Assembly: GCA_963668315.1 (NCBI GenBank)
Contig: OY764216.1
Location: 4,064,001-4,128,000, forward strand
DNA length: 64,000 nt
Origin: Spirochaetia bacterium
GTDB lineage: Bacteria; Spirochaetota; Spirochaetia; DSM-2461
Reading direction: 5' to 3'
This document shows, in pieces, positions 3,447 through 13,532 of the stretch. The notes beneath the pieces are model-generated. The model ran no database searches. It was given only the letters and a program-made list of their open reading frames with translations, and was not told where the DNA came from. The position numbers and the translations under genes were made by a program. Every line of letters begins with the position of its first letter. The first letter of the stretch is position 1.

Positions 3447-4583
3447 TCAGTCCGGCCTGTAAATCCGGGGGACCCTTGACGTTATGGTGGAGACAATTTC
3501 GTAGTTTATGGTCCCCGTCAATTCGGCCAGTTCATCAACGGAAAGGGCTGCGTCTCCCTGTTCTCCGAAAAGAATGACCTCATCCCCCACTTCTACGTCC
3601 CCGATATGTCCCACGTCAATCATGGTCAGGTCCATACAGACTCTGCCGACTACCGGAGCCTTTTCGCCTCTAACGAGCATAACGCCCTTTGAGGAGAGAA
3701 GCCGGCTGTATCCATCGGCATACCCGACAGATACGGTGGCGATCTTCGTCGGCCTTTCCGTCACATAGGTACTGCCGTAGCTGATCTTAAAATCACCGGG
3801 TACATCTTTTAAGTGGATGATCTTCCCTTTCAGAGTCATCACCGGCTTAAGGGGTACGATCGACATATCGACTTCGGGAGAAGGGGCCAGACCGTAAAGG
3901 ATGATCCCCGGCCTGACCATATCCAGATGGGTCTCGGCCATTTCCAGTGTCGCGGCGCTGTTGGCGGCATGGCGGATGGGAATTCTCAATCCCCTCTCCT
4001 CCAGCCGGTCCAGCACTTTCTTGAAGAAGGCGAACTGCTCCCGGGCATGGGTCTTATCAAAGGAGTCGGCATTGGCAAAATGGGTGTAGATCCCTTCCAG
4101 ATTTAATCCGGGCAGTTCGTGTATTCTGAGGACATCGGAGACGATATCATCTACCGAATCCCCCTGCAGACCTACGCGGCCCATTCCCGAATCGATTTTG
4201 ACATGCACCGTGATTCTCTTCCGGAGGGATGCGGCCGCTTCGGAAAGCCTTTGCGCCTCCTCCAGGGAGTTGACCGCGGGAGTCAGGTCATGCTCGGCCA
4301 TCACCACAGCCTGGGAAGGCGGGGTATGGCCGAACATCAAAATAGGGGCTGTGATACCGGCCTTACGCAGACCGACCGCCTCGGAGAGTCGGGCAACGGT
4401 CAGAAAATCCGCTCCGTTCTCCAGGGCTGTCCGGGCGATGCGGACGGCCCCGTGACCGTAGGCATCGGCCTTCACGACGGCGGCCAGCTTCACTCCGGGC
4501 CCGACATGGGCCTTGAGATTCTGCACATTGTTTTTTAAAGCGGACAAATCAATATCCGCCTGAATAACATGTTCTGCTTCCAT
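3447..4583 (-). CDS. alr: Alanine racemase
   Basis: AVVKADAYGHG PLP lysine, KIDSGMGRVG, GYADGY, GRVCMD, GTINYE. Confidence 0.97.
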   Translation of the reverse strand: MEAEHVIQADIDLSALKNNVQNLKAHVGPGVKLAAVVKADAYGHGAVRIARTALENGADFLTVARLSEAVGLRKAGITAPILMFGHTPPSQAVVMAEHDLTPAVNSLEEAQRLSEAAASLRKRITVHVKIDSGMGRVGLQGDSVDDIVSDVLRIHELPGLNLEGIYTHFANADSFDKTHAREQFAFFKKVLDRLEERGLRIPIRHAANSAATLEMAETHLDMVRPGIILYGLAPSPEVDMSIVPLKPVMTLKGKIIHLKDVPGDFKISYGSTYVTERPTKIATVSVGYADGYSRLLSSKGVMLVRGEKAPVVGRVCMDLTMIDVGHIGDVEVGDEVILFGEQGDAALSVDELAELTGTINYEIVSTITSRVPRIYRPD

Positions 4584-4589
4584 GGAGAA

Positions 4590-5450
4590 TTAAACCGCAG
4601 CGGCTTCTTTTACGGCATTCCCATAGGCCGTGGTTAATTCATTGAAAGATTCGATGATTCCCCTGGTCTTGGCGCCGGGTTTTCCGCTGCCAATGACAAG
4701 ATCGTCAATTTTGACGACAGGAACGACCTCTTTGTTGGAAGCGGTAATAAAGATCTCTTCGAAATCCTTCAGTTCCTCTTTTTTGATATCCCGGATCTCC
4801 ACTTCATAGGAATCCTTTACCATATCGAGAAGAACATTTCTGGTTACACCGCCCAGGATGTCCTTGCCGGGAGTCACGATTTTATTGCCGATAATGCCGA
4901 AGATATTGGTGGTGGTTCCTTCCAGGACACGATTGTTCCTGTCGACATAGACCGCTTCAACGCAGTCGGCGTTCTGGGCTTTCTGACCGGCCATGACGGC
5001 ATTCAGGTAGTTGATGCTCTTCGCTTCGGGCAGGTACCGTTCGACACCGATGGTCATGATGGAGACTCCGTCGGTATACCACCACGCGGGGCAGGCATGC
5101 TTATGGGTGACCATAACAATCAGTTTTCCCTTTCCTTCGGGAAGTACGCCGCTGGAGCTTTCTCCACCGGTGACTACGATACGGATATTGGCTTCTTCGA
5201 GATCGGGATTTTTATCCATGGTATCGTTCACAGCCTGGGCGATCTCTTCATCGCTCCACTTGAGATCAAGACCGATTATATTGCAGGAATTCCTCAGTCT
5301 TTTGATATGATCTTCCAGATGAAAGGGACGTCTGTTATAGGTTCTCATAAAATCGAATGCACCGTAACCGCGCAGAACGGCAATGTCTTTTGCCGAAACC
5401 ATAGCTTCATTTTCAGGAACGAATTTTCCGTCAACATAGTAAATATCCAT
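4590..5450 (-). CDS. PLP fold-IV aminotransferase, probably a D-amino-acid transaminase
   Basis: LRGYGAFDF, IRIVVTGG, AKSINY (catalytic K), EGTTTN, GVTR; co-transcribed with alr. Confidence 0.85.
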   Translation of the reverse strand: MDIYYVDGKFVPENEAMVSAKDIAVLRGYGAFDFMRTYNRRPFHLEDHIKRLRNSCNIIGLDLKWSDEEIAQAVNDTMDKNPDLEEANIRIVVTGGESSSGVLPEGKGKLIVMVTHKHACPAWWYTDGVSIMTIGVERYLPEAKSINYLNAVMAGQKAQNADCVEAVYVDRNNRVLEGTTTNIFGIIGNKIVTPGKDILGGVTRNVLLDMVKDSYEVEIRDIKKEELKDFEEIFITASNKEVVPVVKIDDLVIGSGKPGAKTRGIIESFNELTTAYGNAVKEAAAV

Positions 5451-5452
5451 CT

Positions 5453-6307
5453 TTATACCTCCGAGCTGGATCTGTTTCTTAATCTTTCAATATCATCTTT
5501 CTGCTGGCGCAGAATATTAACCGCTTCTTCCCGTGTGATTTTCTTAAAATGCAGTTTCTGTCCGGGCATATACTGGCCCAGAAGATCCGTATCGGCAGAA
5601 ATCACATTAAATATCCGGGGGTACCCCCCCACCGTCTGCCTGTGCTTCAGCAGAATGATAGGCCCCTTCGGCGTTAACTGAACCGTTCCGGTGGCCACCG
5701 CTTCGGAGACCATGTTCCCCAGGGAGACGCTCAGCCGGACATCGGGATTTTCCAGACGCATTCCCATATCGCTTGTATCGCCCGATATGGTCCAGGACGT
5801 ATTCAGAAAGAGCTCCTTATCGGCCAGGAAGGAGTATTCCGGTCCTTCCACGACGCGGATATATCCTTCCGGATCGGGCCAGGTCGCCAGATCACCGAAG
5901 GCTCCCCTTTCCCGGCCTGCCGGGGACTCCGAAAAAGCCTTGCCGGCGGCCCGGTAACAGAGATAGGTTCTGAATCCGTAATGCCTCTCGCCAAAGGAGA
6001 GGACCGATCCCTTCCCGGCCGCATAAACTGTTCCGTGGTCTATTTTTATTGTTCCTCCGGGACCTTTCAGGGTAACGCCGCAGTAGGCCGAACCGGTCAG
6101 GACAAAGCAGCCATCCTCTTCAAACTCCAGAGAAGGGGGAAAGAGGATTTCCAGAGCCGGAGCATCGGGAGGATTCCCCAGAAGGATGTTTCCCGTCTGC
6201 AACGCAAACAGGTCCATGGCACCTCCCGGTGTTATTCCCACATCCTGATTGCCGAAGGAAGGGAGAGAAACCCTTTTACATAATCCCTGCTGGACCGTCT
6301 TGAACAT
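5453..6307 (-). CDS. pxpC: 5-oxoprolinase subunit C (KipA/AHS2)
   Basis: GGAMD..A....N.LLGN, GFRTYL, SDMGMRL, GTVQL...GPIILL..RQTVGGYP. Start moved to the ATG at 6307 just after the pxpA stop (TTG at 6316 is also possible). Confidence 0.9.
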   Translation of the reverse strand: MFKTVQQGLCKRVSLPSFGNQDVGITPGGAMDLFALQTGNILLGNPPDAPALEILFPPSLEFEEDGCFVLTGSAYCGVTLKGPGGTIKIDHGTVYAAGKGSVLSFGERHYGFRTYLCYRAAGKAFSESPAGRERGAFGDLATWPDPEGYIRVVEGPEYSFLADKELFLNTSWTISGDTSDMGMRLENPDVRLSVSLGNMVSEAVATGTVQLTPKGPIILLKHRQTVGGYPRIFNVISADTDLLGQYMPGQKLHFKKITREEAVNILRQQKDDIERLRNRSSSEV

Positions 6308-6308
6308 A

Positions 6309-7037
6309 TCAGGCAATATCCGTCCCGGAAAGTTTCGCTGCCAGCTCGAGGGAGATGGGTGAATCGGAATGGATGCAGATCGTATCGGCTTTGATATCAA
6401 CTTCTTCTGTCGTTACCGTTCCGTCGGCCCGGGTTATATGGCCGTCGATTTTCCCGTTTTTAACGATATTCATGGCGTGGGCCACCGCTTCATCCAGATC
6501 ATGGATAGAGGCGTAATCCAGCTTACGGCTGACCAGGGTCAACTGACCGGTCCGGGGATCATAGGCGTAACGCCTTTCGGCAAAGGCCTCATAGAAGACA
6601 TCCATTCCCAGAGTCAGGCTTTCGGCAGCCAGACAGGACTGGTAAGGGGTTACCACCGTCTTTATCCCCTGCTCCTTCAGCCATCCGGCCAGAATCCGGG
6701 AAAGGTCCGGCCTGACCCAGCAGTCGTTGTAAAGGGCTCCGTGAAACTTGACTTTGTCCACGCCGCCTATGAGTTCATACTGGGCATCGAGGCTTTTCAG
6801 AAGATCAGCCGGAGCGATATCCATGGAGAAACGGCCGAAGTTCTCCCTGTCGGGATAGGACAGGTGGGCTGTAACGGCGACCTGATTCTCTTCGGCCAGT
6901 TTTTTGAAGGCGTCTATGCTCTCCCCATCTCCCGCATGGCCGCCGCAGGCGATATTCGCCATGCTGATATGCTTCATCAATTCAATATCAACGGGATGGT
7001 CGGCACCTCTTTCGCCGATGTCGCAATTTATATGCAT
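6309..7037 (-). CDS. pxpA: 5-oxoprolinase subunit A (LamB/YcsF)
   Basis: INCDIGE, ANIACGGHAGD, HLSYPDRENFGR, KFHGALYN, DTICIHSD. Confidence 0.93.
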   Translation of the reverse strand: MHINCDIGERGADHPVDIELMKHISMANIACGGHAGDGESIDAFKKLAEENQVAVTAHLSYPDRENFGRFSMDIAPADLLKSLDAQYELIGGVDKVKFHGALYNDCWVRPDLSRILAGWLKEQGIKTVVTPYQSCLAAESLTLGMDVFYEAFAERRYAYDPRTGQLTLVSRKLDYASIHDLDEAVAHAMNIVKNGKIDGHITRADGTVTTEEVDIKADTICIHSDSPISLELAAKLSGTDIA

Positions 7038-7657
7038 CAGTTAATCTCCTTCATAATAACAGTGTCGCCCGGCTCTATCAGCAGCAGATGCTTCGGATCG
7101 GTAGAGCCGATAAGATTCCACCCCCCCGGGGATTCCTGCGGATAGATTCCGGTCTGTGCTCCGCCGATAGCCACGGCCCCGGCAGGCACTTTCACCCGGG
7201 GGCTGTCGAGCCGCGGGGTTTCCAGGCGGGGGTCCAGACCGATCAGATAGGGGAAGTTCGGAAGAAAGCCGACCATAGCAACGGTAAAAGTACTGCCCCT
7301 GTGCAGGTCGATAACCTCACGGACCGTAAGTTTATGCAGATCAGCCACGCGCTCAAGATCCTCCCCGTCATACCGGACAGGTATTTCCACTCTCTTGCCC
7401 GCCTGCTCTCCCCCGGAATCATCCCGGCTGAAGCAGGAAGAGACATACTCTTCCAGCTCGGATCTGTCCGTCGTCAGGGGATCGAAATGAACAGCCAGGG
7501 CATTGTATGAGGGAACAAGGTCCAGGATACCCCGTGAAGCCGGTCCCTCTTCTTTTAAGCGGCGGTAAACCGACAGGATCCGGGAGGAAACCTCCGCATC
7601 TATCGTGCGAGACAGGGACCAGCAGAGGCAGGAATCGCCCAGAGGATACCGCTCCAT
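7037..7657 (-). CDS. pxpB: 5-oxoprolinase subunit B (KipI/AHS1)
   Basis: GFLPNFPYL, PRVKVPAGAVAIGGAQTGIYPQESPGGWNLIG. Confidence 0.93.
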   Translation of the reverse strand: MERYPLGDSCLCWSLSRTIDAEVSSRILSVYRRLKEEGPASRGILDLVPSYNALAVHFDPLTTDRSELEEYVSSCFSRDDSGGEQAGKRVEIPVRYDGEDLERVADLHKLTVREVIDLHRGSTFTVAMVGFLPNFPYLIGLDPRLETPRLDSPRVKVPAGAVAIGGAQTGIYPQESPGGWNLIGSTDPKHLLLIEPGDTVIMKEIN

Positions 7658-8566
7658 TTACATCTCCCGGTCTGCGCCTGAGGCCAGTTCAAAAAGCTGT
7701 CCGTAAAGATCATGTTCCCAGGAAGCATCGAGCCCGTCAACCGTGGCCTTATGCTCGCCGCTGACCCCGTCCACGGCTCCGGCTTCCACCACGGCATTCA
7801 GAATGCCGGCGAATTCACCGGGAGAGGGAAGAAGGTTTCTTCCGGCCATAAGGGACAGGAGGGCGGCTTTTCCGTAACCGGCCCAGTTGCTCACGCCGGC
7901 GCAGACACAATGGTGGGCATTGGTTTTACAGCTGAAGGCCCTTCCGGGCGCCACATGAACATCCACCATATTCGAAACAAGGCCCATGCCCAGTTCGTTT
8001 CCGCCGTCTCCTATACCGATAGTTCTGATCCCCTGTGCGGCGCAGTATTTGAAAAGCGTATCCACCGGTGCCACGGCAAAGGATATATCGTCCCCCCGGA
8101 AGTTGTAATATTTACCGTCCACGGCCATTCCGGGACGTTCAATGGCCACGAAATGGGTGGTATCGGGGCGTACGGAATTCACGGCGATGAGATCGTCCTC
8201 CCTGTCATAACCGACGATGTCCATCTCCCTTCCGATAGAAGCGAATCCGGCTTTCATAATATCCACCGAATGGGAATCGACGATAATGGTAACCTCTTTT
8301 CCCAGCCGGACCAGAGCTTCTGCCAGCACGACGGCACCCGGAGGGCCGTCCGTCTCGATCACACCGGCGCTCTTTATGAAAAAACCGGTGGTAAGGAGGA
8401 TATGCTTCCCCTCCAGAAGGGATTCGGTGGCGGGAAGAATATGATCCTGTACGGCCCAGTCGGCCAGGCCTCTTTTTCCCGGATCCTGCTGAATAAGCGT
8501 CTCAATGAACCGGGCATTCTGAGCCCAGGTCTGTTTCTCACTATCAGATTTTAAAATCACGGTCAT
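7658..8566 (-). CDS. DUF4392 protein (D-glutamate cyclase C-terminal-type domain)
   Basis: TGF....ETDGPPG, IERPG....YYN.RG, IGIGDGGNELGMG, GVSNWAGY. Confidence 0.88.
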   Translation of the reverse strand: MTVILKSDSEKQTWAQNARFIETLIQQDPGKRGLADWAVQDHILPATESLLEGKHILLTTGFFIKSAGVIETDGPPGAVVLAEALVRLGKEVTIIVDSHSVDIMKAGFASIGREMDIVGYDREDDLIAVNSVRPDTTHFVAIERPGMAVDGKYYNFRGDDISFAVAPVDTLFKYCAAQGIRTIGIGDGGNELGMGLVSNMVDVHVAPGRAFSCKTNAHHCVCAGVSNWAGYGKAALLSLMAGRNLLPSPGEFAGILNAVVEAGAVDGVSGEHKATVDGLDASWEHDLYGQLFELASGADREM

Positions 8567-9323
8567 AAAGGTCTCCTATAAACATATGTCCCGGGGCGTG
8601 GGTTATCATGATGGGGGGCTTTGCCACCACGGCGGCAGACTGGGGCGTCACGCCGCAGGCCCAGAAAACGGGAATTTCATTTTCCCGGACAGTCACGGCA
8701 TCGCCGTAATCGGGTTTATTTAAATCTTTTATGCCGATCATCCCGGGATGGGCCAGATGAACGGGACTTCCATGCACGGCAGGATAATCCCGGGTAATTT
8801 CGATGGAACGGATGGCATCCTTGGGTTCGAAGGGGCGCATACTGACGACCATGGGGACATCGGTAAAACGGCCCGCATCACGGCACATCAGGTTGGTCCT
8901 GTACATGGGCACATTGACATTTTCCGTAATATGACGGACATCCAGCCCTCCGGCCAGCAGAGCCTGTTCAAAGGAAAAGCTGCAGCCGATAAGAAAAAAA
9001 ACAAAATCATCACGCCACAGATCGGAAATATCGGTGCACTCCCTGGTCAGCTCACCCTTCTCATAGACACGGTATTTGGGAAGATCGGTGCAGATATCGG
9101 CATGATCGGCCAGAATATCGGTAAAACGGGACCCCTTCTCCCCCACTTCCAGAATAGGACAGGGTTTGGGATTCCGCTGGGCAAAGAGAAGAAAATCCTG
9201 GGCCCAGTCTGCCGGCAGAATGGCCAGATTTGCCTGTACATGCCCGCTGGCAAGACCGGCCGTAGGTCCTGTTAACACTTGAGACCGGCAATCCTGCCGG
9301 ACTTCTTCTGCTGTCTGACTCAT
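8544..9323 (-). CDS. DUF1445/YcsI putative hydro-lyase (D-glutamate cyclase N-terminal-type domain)
   Basis: QANL, RNPKPCP, GCSFSFE, NVPMYRTN, VSMRP, HGSP, PVFWACGVTPQ, ITHAPGHMF. Confidence 0.92.
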   Translation of the reverse strand: MSQTAEEVRQDCRSQVLTGPTAGLASGHVQANLAILPADWAQDFLLFAQRNPKPCPILEVGEKGSRFTDILADHADICTDLPKYRVYEKGELTRECTDISDLWRDDFVFFLIGCSFSFEQALLAGGLDVRHITENVNVPMYRTNLMCRDAGRFTDVPMVVSMRPFEPKDAIRSIEITRDYPAVHGSPVHLAHPGMIGIKDLNKPDYGDAVTVRENEIPVFWACGVTPQSAAVVAKPPIMITHAPGHMFIGDLYDRDFKI

Positions 9324-9674
9324 ATCATCCTCACCAGGTAATAATCATCCGAACCGGAACCTTTTAAGGTCCGGCCAGGAGTGCATTATTAAATATATAT
9401 TCAAAATCTATAGGGACATTATTCAATTTGGTTGTTTTAATCAATACCCGAAATACCGTTTTTCGTATTTTTAATCATCCTATTCTACGTTTTCACATAG
9501 ACACAAAGGGTATATCTACGCTTTACAATGTACTACATAAATGTATATTTATTCATAATATCTTTTATTTCTCTATACTGCATAAAATTAAATGGCTTAC
9601 ATAATTGTATGAAGCTCTTTTCCTTAACCTGTAACCTCAGAAAAGCGCTGGCCCGGAATAGCCCTTAGGGGAAG

Positions 9675-9706
9675 AAAAAAAAGCCGTCCTGACAGCAGAA
9701 CGGCTT
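9675..9706 (-). terminator. Intrinsic terminator after murD
   Basis: Minus strand AAGCCGTTCTG-CTGT-CAGGACGGCTT followed by a T-run. Confidence 0.75.
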
Positions 9707-9750
9707 CATTATGATAATGAGAAAAATAATCCTTCTTCGGAAAGGCTCCT

Positions 9751-11127
9751 TCAGGAGAGGGAATCCACCAGGGCTTTGAACTGATTCCCCCTGTCGAATT
9801 CATTCAGAAACATTCCGAAGGAAGTTGCCCCGGGAGAAAGAATGACCCTGTCACCCGGTTCCGCCAGGCCGACGGCCTGGTCAAAAGCCTCTTTTAAAGA
9901 ACCATAGGGTCCCTGGTAAACGATCTTTTCCCGATCCATAATATCCATCATGCTGTCGGTGGCGCTGCCCTTGAGCAGAATGACGGCCTTGGCTTTCTGC
10001 ATTTTTCCCTCGAATACGGAGAAGTCCAGATTCTTGTCGGTTCCCCCGCAGATAAGCACGGGTTTATCCTTAAAGCTCTCAACGGCGGCAACCAGGGCGT
10101 CGGGTATGGTCGCGGCCGTGTCATTGTAAAACTCAACTCCCCTCTTCGTCCCGCACAATTCCATTCTGTGAGGGACGCCGGGAAAGCTCTTCACAGCTTT
10201 GACGACCTCTTCCCGGGCGATGCCGAAAAGGCGGGCCATGGAAGCGGCGATCAGCAGATTGCCTCTCAGGTGCCTTCCGGGAAGGGCGATATCGTCGGGA
10301 ACCAGAAGCTCCTCCCCCCCGCCGGAATTACGGAACCACCCCTGCCCGCCCTGAAGGCCGAAGCTGACCTGATCGGAAAAGGAATCATCCTCAGTGGAAA
10401 AAAGAAGAACATCGGCCTTCGTCTGATTCGGCCAGTCACGATGATTCTCCTTAATCGGCATCAAGGCCTTCTGACCGGGTTTCTGTTCGCTGTAGATAAC
10501 CAGTTTATCGTCTATGTAATCCTGAATACTTTCGTAACGGTTCTGGTGGTCGTGCATAATATTGGTAATAACGGCGATTTCCGGATGAAGGAGATCTTTC
10601 CCCCTCAGATCCGCCAGCTGCCAGGAGGAGAGCTCCAGCACGACCGGATCCTCCGGGTTCAGCTGATCCAGAAAGCTCAGGGGAGATATGGTGATATTCC
10701 CCCCCAGGCGGCTGCCGGGGAAGCTCTGTTTGAGGATATGGTGGAGGGCTGAAACGGTGGTGGATTTTCCCTTGCTCCCCGTAACAGCCAGAATGGGATT
10801 AGGGCAGAACATCAGAAAAAGAGACAAGTCGGTCTCTATCCGCCGGGCCATTTTCAGGTAGGGAGAATCCAGGGTAACGGCCGGATTCTTTATGACCATG
10901 GCGGCATTGCGGAAGTCCTCCTCCTCATGGCGTCCCAGTACGTAACGTATGGGCAGGCCTTCCAGCTCCTTAATGGTGGGAGCCAGGATATCGCGGTCCC
11001 TGAGATCGGTCACGGTGACCAAGGCTCCTTCTCTGGCGAGAAATCGGGCAGAGGCCAACCCGCCCCCGTTCAGTCCCAGTCCCATTACCGTTACCGGCAT
11101 ATCTTTAAGTTCTTCTCGGTTCATCAT
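9751..11127 (-). CDS. murD: UDP-N-acetylmuramoyl-L-alanine--D-glutamate ligase
   Basis: MGLGLNGGG, AVTGSKGKSTT, GGNI, LELSSWQL, PHRME, YNDTAAT, SPGATSFGMFLNEFDRG. Confidence 0.96.
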   Translation of the reverse strand: MMNREELKDMPVTVMGLGLNGGGLASARFLAREGALVTVTDLRDRDILAPTIKELEGLPIRYVLGRHEEEDFRNAAMVIKNPAVTLDSPYLKMARRIETDLSLFLMFCPNPILAVTGSKGKSTTVSALHHILKQSFPGSRLGGNITISPLSFLDQLNPEDPVVLELSSWQLADLRGKDLLHPEIAVITNIMHDHQNRYESIQDYIDDKLVIYSEQKPGQKALMPIKENHRDWPNQTKADVLLFSTEDDSFSDQVSFGLQGGQGWFRNSGGGEELLVPDDIALPGRHLRGNLLIAASMARLFGIAREEVVKAVKSFPGVPHRMELCGTKRGVEFYNDTAATIPDALVAAVESFKDKPVLICGGTDKNLDFSVFEGKMQKAKAVILLKGSATDSMMDIMDREKIVYQGPYGSLKEAFDQAVGLAEPGDRVILSPGATSFGMFLNEFDRGNQFKALVDSLS

Positions 11128-11312: not shown

Positions 11313-13532
11313 TTGTACAGAGCAGTTCTATTACCTTTCCTATTTTTACTAACCATCATAAATACTCCGCCGCTCCTTTCCCAGGAGATGTCATCGGATG
11401 ACCCGGTAGTCGCCCTTGTTCTTGCCGGAGGGGGAGCCCTGGGATTCGCCCATGTGGGAGCCCTCAAAGTGCTGGAAGAGGAAGGCATTCATCCCGATCT
11501 GGTCATTGGGGCCAGTATGGGGAGCATCGTGGGCGGTCTTTACTGTACGGGCTACTCAGCGGAGGAGATTGAAAATCTGGTAATTGGAACGGATTGGAAG
11601 GAAACCATGCTGGACAATTACGACAGAAGGAAACTCAGCTATGAGAAGAGGAGAAACCAGCCTTCCTACAACATATCCCTGGGGACGGAAAAGGAGAACA
11701 GGGTTAGCGATGCGGGCTTGTCCCAGGCCCAGCATGTCATGGAACTTCTGGACGCTTACCTGGCGCCCTATACGACGGAAATGGATTTCGATGACCTCCC
11801 CGTCCCTTTTCGCGCCGTGGGAGCCGATTTGCTCACCGGAGAGAAGGTCGTAATGGGAAAGGGGGATTTAAAGAGGGCAATCCGGGCCTCCATGGCCGTG
11901 CCCGGCATATTCACTCCCGTGGAATACGGGGACCGGTTCCTCATTGACGGCGGGTGGGCGGAAAATCTTCCCACGACCGTGGCCCGTGAAATGGGAGCGG
12001 ACATTGTCATAGCCGTTTCCCTCTTCTCCTTGGAGGGAGACATGGACAAGCTGAATACGGTGGGGGCCGTCACCGCCCAGGCCGATCAGATCCGCACTCT
12101 GGAACGGTACAGAATGAGCCGGGAAGCGGCTGACCTGATCATATCTCCCGAACTTTCCGGGTATACCATGGCCGATTTCGAAAGGAGCGCCCGCCTCTCC
12201 GAGCTTGGATACCAGGCGGCGGACCGGATGCGGGGCGAGATCCGGGCTCTGGCCGATTCTCTGAAAAAGGACAGGCTCGCATCACAGGCCCGAACCTGTG
12301 ATGACAGGGTAATTCCCCTTTCGGCCATAAATGTCTCGATAGACGGGAATAGGGTCAGGGAGGAGAAACTGGAAAAGGAAATCACCGAGGCCCTGGGTGA
12401 CGCACCCCGGTTAAGTGAAATCCGCCAAAAACTGTATTCCCTTTACGACAGGGGCGATTATACCCATGTCTGGTACCGCCTTGTGCCGGCGGACGGGGAA
12501 AAGTTCACGATGGAAGTCGACGCGCCGGGCGGTATCATTCCGGAAAACAGTTTCAGCCTGGCCCTTGATTTTTCCAGCCAGGCCATCGAGGGACGCATAA
12601 CGGAATTCTCCCTGAAAACCTCCTACCAGCGCTGGCTGGACAACAGCAGGCGCAACCGGCTGGAACTGGAGCTCCGGCTGTCCGATTTTCCCTCCCTTGC
12701 CACGGAATTCGATCATAAATTCCCCGACAGGGATATGTCCCTCGGCGGGGAAGCCCACTTCAGAAGTGATACCCGGTACTTCTTCGAGGACAGCACCGTT
12801 TCGTCACTCTACGGCAGGCAGATTCTGGGAGCGGAGACCTATCTGGAACACTCCTTTTTTGACCGTTTCGATATTAAGGGAGTTCTGTATTATGACTTTT
12901 TCTGGATGGATCATCAGCTGGGCGTTGACTTCCTGGAAGATGAGACATGGCAGAGACTGGGGGCAAGAGGCATCATTTCCATTGATACCCTGGACAGGCG
13001 GGTCGTACCCAGGAAAGGGGTGAATGCGGTCTACCTGGTTGAGGGAGGCGTTGACAGAGAGGGAAACCGGATCGGATTCTATAAAACCGCCGGACTGGTT
13101 TACCTCTCCCTGACGGACTTCCTCGTGGCCGTTCCCCGCTGGGAAGCCCAGGGGCTTCTGGCAGGGACTCTCTCCCCCCTGGAAGCTCCCACTCTAGGAA
13201 ATTACATCAGCCTCTACGGATACTATCCCCAGGAACTGAGGGATGAGAACGCGGTCATGGGAGGAATGGAAATCCGGATAAAGCTGGCCAGCCTGCCCCT
13301 GGGAATCGGCAATGATGTCTATCTCGCCGCCGGGGGAAATTATGCCGCCCTGTGGGAGGACGACATACAGAAGCAGTATGACAACTACAGGGATTTCTAC
13401 GGTTTCGGGACCGGCCTTATCCTGAATACCATTCTGGGGGAAGTAAGCTTTACCATAAGCGGCAACAGGGACGGGAGGTTATCCTCTTTCTTCGGAATCA
13501 GCACTTCACTGCCCCTGGCGGAAAAGCTCTGA
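11313..13532 (+). CDS. Patatin-like phospholipase with probable POTRA and C-terminal Omp85-like beta-barrel (PlpD/type Vd-like)
   Basis: Signal peptide; GGGALG, GASMG and DGG motifs; C-terminal half has alternating aromatic beta-strand pattern (DTLDR..P.KG). Confidence 0.85.
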   Translation: MYRAVLLPFLFLLTIINTPPLLSQEMSSDDPVVALVLAGGGALGFAHVGALKVLEEEGIHPDLVIGASMGSIVGGLYCTGYSAEEIENLVIGTDWKETMLDNYDRRKLSYEKRRNQPSYNISLGTEKENRVSDAGLSQAQHVMELLDAYLAPYTTEMDFDDLPVPFRAVGADLLTGEKVVMGKGDLKRAIRASMAVPGIFTPVEYGDRFLIDGGWAENLPTTVAREMGADIVIAVSLFSLEGDMDKLNTVGAVTAQADQIRTLERYRMSREAADLIISPELSGYTMADFERSARLSELGYQAADRMRGEIRALADSLKKDRLASQARTCDDRVIPLSAINVSIDGNRVREEKLEKEITEALGDAPRLSEIRQKLYSLYDRGDYTHVWYRLVPADGEKFTMEVDAPGGIIPENSFSLALDFSSQAIEGRITEFSLKTSYQRWLDNSRRNRLELELRLSDFPSLATEFDHKFPDRDMSLGGEAHFRSDTRYFFEDSTVSSLYGRQILGAETYLEHSFFDRFDIKGVLYYDFFWMDHQLGVDFLEDETWQRLGARGIISIDTLDRRVVPRKGVNAVYLVEGGVDREGNRIGFYKTAGLVYLSLTDFLVAVPRWEAQGLLAGTLSPLEAPTLGNYISLYGYYPQELRDENAVMGGMEIRIKLASLPLGIGNDVYLAAGGNYAALWEDDIQKQYDNYRDFYGFGTGLILNTILGEVSFTISGNRDGRLSSFFGISTSLPLAEKL

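Follow-up and report, generated by a model that had tools for sequence, protein, structure and literature searches.

Enzymes of the Pxp family open 5-oxo-L-proline to L-glutamate using ATP. In Bacillus subtilis all Pxp subunits are encoded together with a DUF1445 protein in one operon, pxpA(ycsF)-ycsG-ycsI(pxpI)-pxpB(kipI)-pxpC(kipA), as described in the accessible part of PMC10448178. DUF1445 (PF07286), followed by DUF4392 (PF14336), also makes up the single fused polypeptide of the mammalian D-glutamate cyclase DGLUCY (C14orf159 / 9030617O03Rik, EC 4.2.1.48; available sections of PMC5339696), and split bacterial homologues of this protein occupy one table row, covering six species, in PMC11580864. 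The subject of this report is an operon in a 64,000-nucleotide stretch of DNA from a Spirochaetia bacterium (assembly GCA_963668315.1, contig OY764216.1), referred to as the window, which has features of both systems. Like that of B. subtilis, the operon holds all Pxp subunits and DUF1445, but it adds DUF4392, which has no match in B. subtilis, a D-amino-acid-type transaminase and an alanine racemase (Alr), is without the transporter and regulator, and has divergent PxpA and PxpC. The two DUF domains stand in the same order as in DGLUCY and share metal-binding acids and cysteine motifs with its vertebrate orthologues; however, they are two genes set among those for PxpABC, the transaminase and Alr, and their cyclase activity is predicted. 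The operon is real, conserved and mobile, and can be described as a pxp operon variant that includes a D-glutamate branch. Its component families are known and their combination is new as far as the literature was searched; neither the combination nor a 5-oxoproline racemase was found in that literature, which did not extend to the PxpABC discovery paper, where ycsI may be discussed.

Seven intact genes lie on the minus strand, from 9323 down to 3447, in the order DUF1445-DUF4392-pxpB-pxpA-pxpC-aminotransferase-alr (Table 1). The tightly coupled run described in the original prediction was borne out in order and strand by the open reading frames (ORFs) and profile matches, with gaps between successive genes of -23, 0, -1, +1, +2 and +6 bases. 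The DUF1445 and DUF4392 ORFs overlap by 23 bases in different frames, and pxpC starts at the ATG right after the pxpA stop; the longer start offered by the ORF finder at 6400 would overlap pxpA. The same order was found on one contig in nine genomes (G000, G001, G019, G020, G245, G321, G398, G438 and G439), and because it thus recurs in eight further genomes the grouping is beyond chance. Three more copies are near-complete: G007 and G012 are without alr, and in G400 the copy extends across two contigs and its transaminase is broken into two ORFs (L302:4620-5467), representing either a pseudogene or an assembly error. PF14336 has matches in 6 of 41 relatives and, across the phylum, in 9 of 401 genomes, and the distribution of the operon is therefore patchy. 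In the tree, the DUF4392 copies from these operons fall into a single clade (support 97/98); the copy from G438, a genome labelled Thermodesulfobacteriota, nests among the spirochaete copies (support 97/93), which suggests transfer. The flanks vary from genome to genome, with one copy sitting after a tRNA-Leu gene, and DUF1445 and DUF4392 stay split in every copy.

Both DUF families are large, with 3,454 cluster representatives for DUF1445 and at least 5,253 homologues for DUF4392. Alignment places E71, D73, E143, D187, E191 and D277 of the operon DUF4392 on the six metal-site acids of TON_0340 (PDB 4dwz, 5gkx), so that all six are common to both proteins, and they are invariant in 29 of 29 bacterial rows and nearly so in vertebrates. 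TON_0340 differs in being archaeal, encoded by a single gene and assigned a phosphatase activity on surrogate substrates (PMC5132392, in its available part). This pattern is consistent with DUF4392 being a dimetal enzyme and a candidate D-glutamate cyclase or 5-oxo-D-proline hydrolase. The two cysteine motifs to which attention had been drawn in DUF1445 do exist, as C114 and C223, and are near-invariant (141/149 and 124/129 cluster representatives, respectively, with both kept in 118/128); C55 is also common (120/137), and the remaining cysteines are not. In a structural model (predicted local distance difference test, pLDDT, 92), C114 and C223 each end a strand before a helix, one in each half of the protein, and the halves have a similar strand-helix order. 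The two-cysteine racemases, of the MurI/hydantoin and DapF/proline racemase types, likewise carry strand-end/helix-start cysteines, one per half. DUF1445, with C114 and C223, is a candidate 5-oxoproline racemase, whose fold may be separate from those of MurI/DapF-type racemases.

An internal sequence repeat in DUF1445 was rejected on half-versus-half profile comparison (probabilities below 1%); C114 was aligned to C223 in two of four local alignments and weakly in a third, which was not used as evidence. Fold searches returned structures of the family itself (PDB 2pif/3db9) and the NrpR-like 3nek (Z 9.4, root-mean-square deviation 3.5, 163 aligned), and no racemase family was listed among the Foldseek and VIA-align matches, an absence from a list that excludes nothing. 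Both cysteines are also kept in the vertebrate fusions (109/115 and 115/117), in a sample retrieved with a fish orthologue that consists of fishes and platypus only and does not include the mouse sequence.

The fold IV aminotransferase has R27, F32, R90, the catalytic K144 and a P-pocket K240 by alignment to 7p8o. These residues agree with the group II D-amino-acid pattern, namely RxxxxF and a second-shell Arg/Lys on the betaY strand, as given in the available tables of PMC10003956 and PMC12429042. The O-pocket Arg, the Phe, the second-shell Arg and the P-pocket Lys are held in common with the group II enzymes of Haliscomenobacter hydrossis (7P7X) and Aminobacterium colombiense (8AHR); in motif 1, however, the operon enzyme has Phe at 33 and Arg at 35 in place of Thr/Tyr and Leu/Ala, positions at which the published members in these sources vary. 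It falls below all NCBIfam cut-offs, and phmmer gave 152 bits to archaeal branched-chain enzymes compared with 133 to group II members. An L-branched-chain transaminase was rejected on the absence of the YxxxxFxGxR and YxR motifs, and a separate IlvE scores above cut-off elsewhere in the source genome; the sequence motifs point, as originally proposed, to a D-type enzyme. According to the accessible parts of the same two papers, D-glutamate and D-alanine are the best donors for the A. colombiense enzyme AmicoTA, which ignores L-amino acids. A second gene with group II motifs lies near 1.232 Mb of the source genome (L021:5125-7012), where it overlaps a gene for a histone-deacetylase-family amidohydrolase. 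The operon alr is one of three in the genome.

The original prediction had also allowed that these genes might supply D-glutamate to MurD without MurI, and a search for murI decided this for the source genome, where a glutamate racemase is present (TIGR00067, 198.6 bits against a cut-off of 146.65) together with two further racemases of the MurI superfamily. A replacement of MurI is thereby ruled out in the source genome. murI was likewise found in 10 of 12 operon carriers, the two without a match being G438 and G398, and in 38 of 41 relatives, and the operon is thus an accessory unit in spirochaetes and no substitute for MurI.

Three 5-oxoprolinase subunit families (PF03746, PF02682 and PF02626) are encoded together in the operon, and this pxp set is the only one in the source genome. 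PxpB narrowly passes its NCBIfam cut-off (TIGR00370, 146.3 versus 145.55 bits), PxpA lies below all five NCBIfam PxpA cut-offs (173.7 versus 213) and PxpC reaches 129.9 bits against a cut-off of 500. In comparison with 14-16 other Pxp sequences, 25 of 59 conserved PxpC columns and 35 of 76 conserved PxpA columns are changed or deleted in 11 operon copies. Such a distinct subfamily, with many altered columns and missed cut-offs, would suit a PxpABC that is specific for 5-oxo-D-proline and opens it directly. Nevertheless, G263 and G273 carry a pxpB-A-C set of this divergent type by itself (L300:5939-8170, L301:6185-8419): its PxpC lacks several canonical motifs, neither a DUF nor a transaminase gene lies within 15 kb, and PF14336 has no match anywhere in the two genomes. 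In other loci the place next to the DUF genes is taken by canonical Pxp or by OplA-type enzymes. The divergence is for these reasons no sign of D-specificity, which is unlikely. With the only pxp set of the genome committed to it, and with a cyclase and a D-specific opening alone merely burning ATP, direct opening of the D lactam is a very poor candidate; an epimerase activity predicted for DUF1445 fits better.

The two DUF families also have partners of interest in other genomes. Three treponeme-like genomes have a distant DUF4392 beside pxpA and a different, canonical-motif D-transaminase, which is an independent pairing. PxpB is joined to DUF4392 in one polypeptide in 4 of the 120 homologues listed for that family; of 30 long DUF1445 representatives scanned, 5 carry OplA-type oxoprolinase domains in the same chain, and DUF1445-DUF4392 fusions exist in both orders. 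In the phylum to which G438 belongs, 251 genomes were sampled; DUF1445 was found in 46, DUF4392 in 21 and both in 19, leaving 27 of the 46 with DUF1445 but no DUF4392, as is also the case in B. subtilis and Corynebacterium glutamicum; many DUF4392 genes, for their part, stand without partners of the operon type. Since each DUF occurs without the other, each must work alone. In 40 regions the neighbours of DUF1445 are usually amino-acid ABC transporters and pxp genes. Growth of Clostridioides difficile on 5-oxoproline without pxpI, reported in the available part of 10.1101/2024.05.01.592088, indicates that DUF1445 has an auxiliary part in the pathway, which would fit a racemase. Taken together, these patterns indicate that DUF1445 acts alongside an oxoprolinase.

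A number of other arrangements were noted around these families. At L044:6603-9831, in a locus free of pxp genes, DUF1445-DUF4392 follow a gene for an amidohydrolase similar to N-acyl-D-amino-acid deacylases (PF07969; score under the NF006560 cut-off). Genes for TAXI-type TRAP transporters recur next to DUF4392 (L053, L054, L057, L074 and L163-L166), and PMC12344293 (accessible part) describes a binding protein of the TAXI type that takes glutamate and pyroglutamate as ligands. In G157, a gene of the Asp/Glu/hydantoin-racemase family lies just upstream of a distant DUF4392 (L042:6775-9921); neither DUF1445 nor murI gave a match in that genome, and the racemase-family gene is possibly a stand-in for DUF1445. 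Three representatives (P0242, P0262 and P0263) have DUF1445 behind an alkyltransferase-like DNA-binding domain (PF01035).

The reading preferred here, although tentative, is that D-glutamate is converted to its lactam by DUF4392, racemised as the lactam by DUF1445 and released as L-glutamate by PxpABC. Cyclisation would proceed by metal-assisted amide formation, inversion of the lactam alpha carbon by two-base racemisation, and opening of the L lactam at the expense of ATP. The transaminase would move nitrogen from D-amino acids to 2-oxoglutarate, yielding D-glutamate, or from D-glutamate to pyruvate, and Alr would tie the D-alanine side to L-alanine. The gene identities, packing, order, motifs and fusions on which this scheme is built were observed; from them we infer the assignment of the two domains, the step catalysed by a racemase and the overall direction of flux. 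Action of Pxp on the L lactam, the preference of group II transaminases for D-glutamate and D-alanine, and cyclisation of D-glutamate by the mouse fusion are established for the families. A role in D-glutamate and 5-oxoproline metabolism, as first proposed, has thus gained from the gene identities, the grouping, the D-type motifs and the cysteine pair, and has lost the link to murD and a MurI-free supply in this genome. The scheme gives two widespread uncharacterised families a concrete functional hypothesis, and bears on where in the human D-glutamate cyclase catalysis resides, in the DUF1445 or the DUF4392 half, and on the role of ycsI/pxpI in B. subtilis.

Several points weigh against a lactam funnel of this kind. 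The product of the mouse fusion is reported to be 5-oxo-D-proline, as judged against D and L standards, with no formation of L-glutamate, and the enzyme is without glutamate racemase activity (PMC5339696, available sections); if the mouse protein keeps both cysteines, this D-only product is difficult to reconcile with active racemisation of the lactam. TON_0340 has been assigned Mn-dependent phosphatase activity (PMC5132392, available part), and the literature searched holds no measured activity for a bacterial DUF1445 or for a DUF4392 and DUF1445 pair. No transporter or regulator gene was found in the operon. Furthermore, in a cell that has MurI, a D-to-L loop driven by ATP would be a futile cycle if left unregulated, and D-glutamate could already be removed by MurI or by the transaminase together with Alr.

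It is possible, though somewhat unlikely, that the operon serves two parallel branches and has no racemase. PxpABC would then act on the L lactam, the DUF pair would be an animal-type cyclase working in reverse, from 5-oxo-D-proline to D-glutamate, and the transaminase and Alr would drain D-glutamate to 2-oxoglutarate and L-alanine, with both lactam enantiomers repaired or consumed. Such an arrangement requires no chemistry other than that of the mouse enzyme, for which the reverse direction has been assayed (PMC5339696, available sections). Under it the purpose of the transaminase and of Alr is plain and no futile cycle arises with MurI; it also agrees with the 23-base overlap of the DUF genes and their fusion in both orders elsewhere. 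If it alone holds, the operon would encode an undescribed D-lactam repair route of known chemistry. However, it leaves unexplained why DUF1445 is found alone beside, or fused to, oxoprolinases, and why it has a cysteine pair. In addition, the equilibrium between D-glutamate and its lactam favours the lactam, roughly tens to one, and opening of the ring without ATP would need a strong pull. A decidedly improbable alternative is that the DUF proteins act on some other small molecule and that the D-amino-acid enzymes are loosely co-regulated with them; a glutamyl derivative might, for instance, be the substrate of DUF4392, acting as a phosphatase or amidohydrolase, and DUF1445 might be a hydro-lyase. 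The phosphatase activity of TON_0340, the NCBIfam name 'putative hydro-lyase' for DUF1445, the action of Pseudomonas putida Pxp paralogues on other lactams (accessible part of 10.1101/2021.12.09.472016) and the many DUF4392 genes without these partners are all in keeping with this. Nevertheless, the one characterised fusion of both domains acts on D-glutamate (PMC5339696, available sections), and the partnerships that these domains have formed, repeatedly and independently, with D-transaminases, oxoprolinases, Alr and a MurD module indicate the same substrate.

The MurD module comes from lineages in which the direction may be different. In the sample of 251 genomes, murI was found in none of the 21 with DUF4392 and in 166 of the 230 without it (Fisher p 2e-11, an overstated value, since kin are not independent and the tree has about six DUF4392 lineages; per-genome completeness is not given). 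Five of these genomes (L153-L157) encode a protein in which DUF4392 is joined to domains 1 and 2 of MurD, alongside a full MurD, and fusions of this type form most of the 120 best matches (P0121-P0240), from Phycisphaerae or Planctomycetota where named. Most of them end about 140 residues past the SSFQL motif, without the third MurD domain, and the Glu before SSFQL that is present in full MurDs, which we take to be the MurD magnesium ligand, is replaced in 113 of 113 readable sequences. Loci with such degenerate MurD-DUF4392 fusions include L048:8980-10755, L050:1066-2838, L060:3334-5184 and L047:622-2361; the fusion often follows an OplA-type oxoprolinase and precedes DUF1445, and six listed proteins are triple fusions of DUF1445, DUF4392 and the degenerate MurD. 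In a survey of class IV aminotransferases in which 30 of 41 matches were read, 10 of the 21 DUF4392 genomes had the branched-chain type only, 6 a D-type or D-like enzyme, 2 an ambiguous one and 3 none. The canonical D-transaminase NF005209 was not found over cut-off in any of 80 genomes, which comprised all 64 without murI and DUF4392, 15 of the 21 with DUF4392 and G157, although 10 of the 64 exceeded 265 bits. MurL (NF041275; PMC8788868) gave no match in five murI-negative genomes, and nothing matched in the controls either.

These distributions suggest that the DUF pair may supply D-glutamate in this second phylum, which would explain how bacteria without MurI build a wall, and to this extent the idea of a supply route has found support outside the source genome, which itself has murI. 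For the operon as a whole, it is quite unlikely that the enzymes run towards D-glutamate and feed MurD, either through Alr and the transaminase or from the L lactam through the D lactam. The absence of murI from all 21 DUF4392 genomes, the five MurD fusions, the 10 genomes with only a branched-chain-motif aminotransferase and the lack of a murI match in the carriers G438 and G398 speak in its favour. murI is nevertheless over cut-off in the source genome and in most carriers and relatives, adjacency to murD is not conserved, and Pxp, if active, would draw the lactam in the opposite direction. In the phylum sample, furthermore, 64 of the 85 murI-negative genomes (of 251) are without DUF4392 too, the DUF4392 genomes are not independent, and the fusion carriers G500 and G534 have an aspartate-racemase-like gene; a bifunctional DapF (PMC5885031) may be a further source of D-glutamate. 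Because most murI-negative genomes are without DUF4392, with no D-glutamate source identified, DUF4392 is not a general substitute for MurI. G457, a single contig, has DUF1445 and is without murI, DUF4392 or a PF01177 match.

The MurI of Escherichia coli is activated by UDP-MurNAc-L-Ala, which offers a parallel for sensing by a MurD module. On a wider and rather doubtful view, DUF1445 would be a racemase with a fold of its own that, with DUF4392, inverts glutamate reversibly through the lactam. With Pxp or OplA the pair would form an ATP-driven D-to-L funnel, and in lineages without MurI, a D-transaminase or MurL it would be a fourth source of D-glutamate for the wall, gated by a dead MurD module that senses UDP-MurNAc-L-Ala.

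The operon had been described as lying immediately downstream of murD, with a functional link between the two. murD does share the strand and lie upstream, yet a spacer of 427 bases (9324-9750) sets it apart from the DUF1445 gene, with a GC content of 35% compared with 51% genome-wide. Within it, at 9707-9680, is a 12-pair hairpin with a T run, which alone is weak evidence, as 15 terminator-like sites were called in the region against 14.7 in shuffles; no minus-strand sigma-70 consensus site was called in 9324-9679. murD is absent from the available flanks of all 11 other operon carriers (one of them cut by contig ends), and in none of five relatives does an operon gene lie within about 1.5 kb of murD. 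Membership of murD in the unit was rejected on the hairpin, the gap and the adjacency not being conserved in relatives. Given its absence from carrier flanks, and the absence of operon genes near the murD of relatives, murD is an accidental neighbour, and a functional link was not borne out in the source genome.

Table 1. Features of the operon and its upstream neighbour (positions in the window)
Feature	Position	Strand	Basis
DUF1445 / YcsI (PxpI), 259 residues	8544..9323	-	PF07286, 211 bits; NF003969, above cut-off
DUF4392 protein, 302 residues	7658..8566	-	PF14336, 261 bits
pxpB, 5-oxoprolinase subunit B, 206 residues	7037..7657	-	PF02682; TIGR00370
pxpA, 5-oxoprolinase subunit A (LamB/YcsF), 242 residues, divergent	6309..7037	-	PF03746, 172 bits
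pxpC, 5-oxoprolinase subunit C, 284 residues, divergent, internal deletion	5453..6307	-	PF02626, 170 bits
Pyridoxal phosphate (PLP) fold IV (class IV) aminotransferase	4590..5450	-	PF01063
alr, alanine racemase, 378 residues	3447..4583	-	TIGR00492, 417 bits (cut-off 168)
AT-rich upstream region, presumed operon promoter/operator	9324..9679	-	Low GC
Terminator-like hairpin with T run, just 3' of murD	9680..9707	-	Consensus match only
murD, full-length, neighbour outside the conserved unit	9751..11127	-	TIGR01087, 385 bits, over cut-off

On the far side of murD and divergent from it, positions 11313-13532 of the window encode a protein with patatin and Omp85 domains, a PlpD-like architecture.

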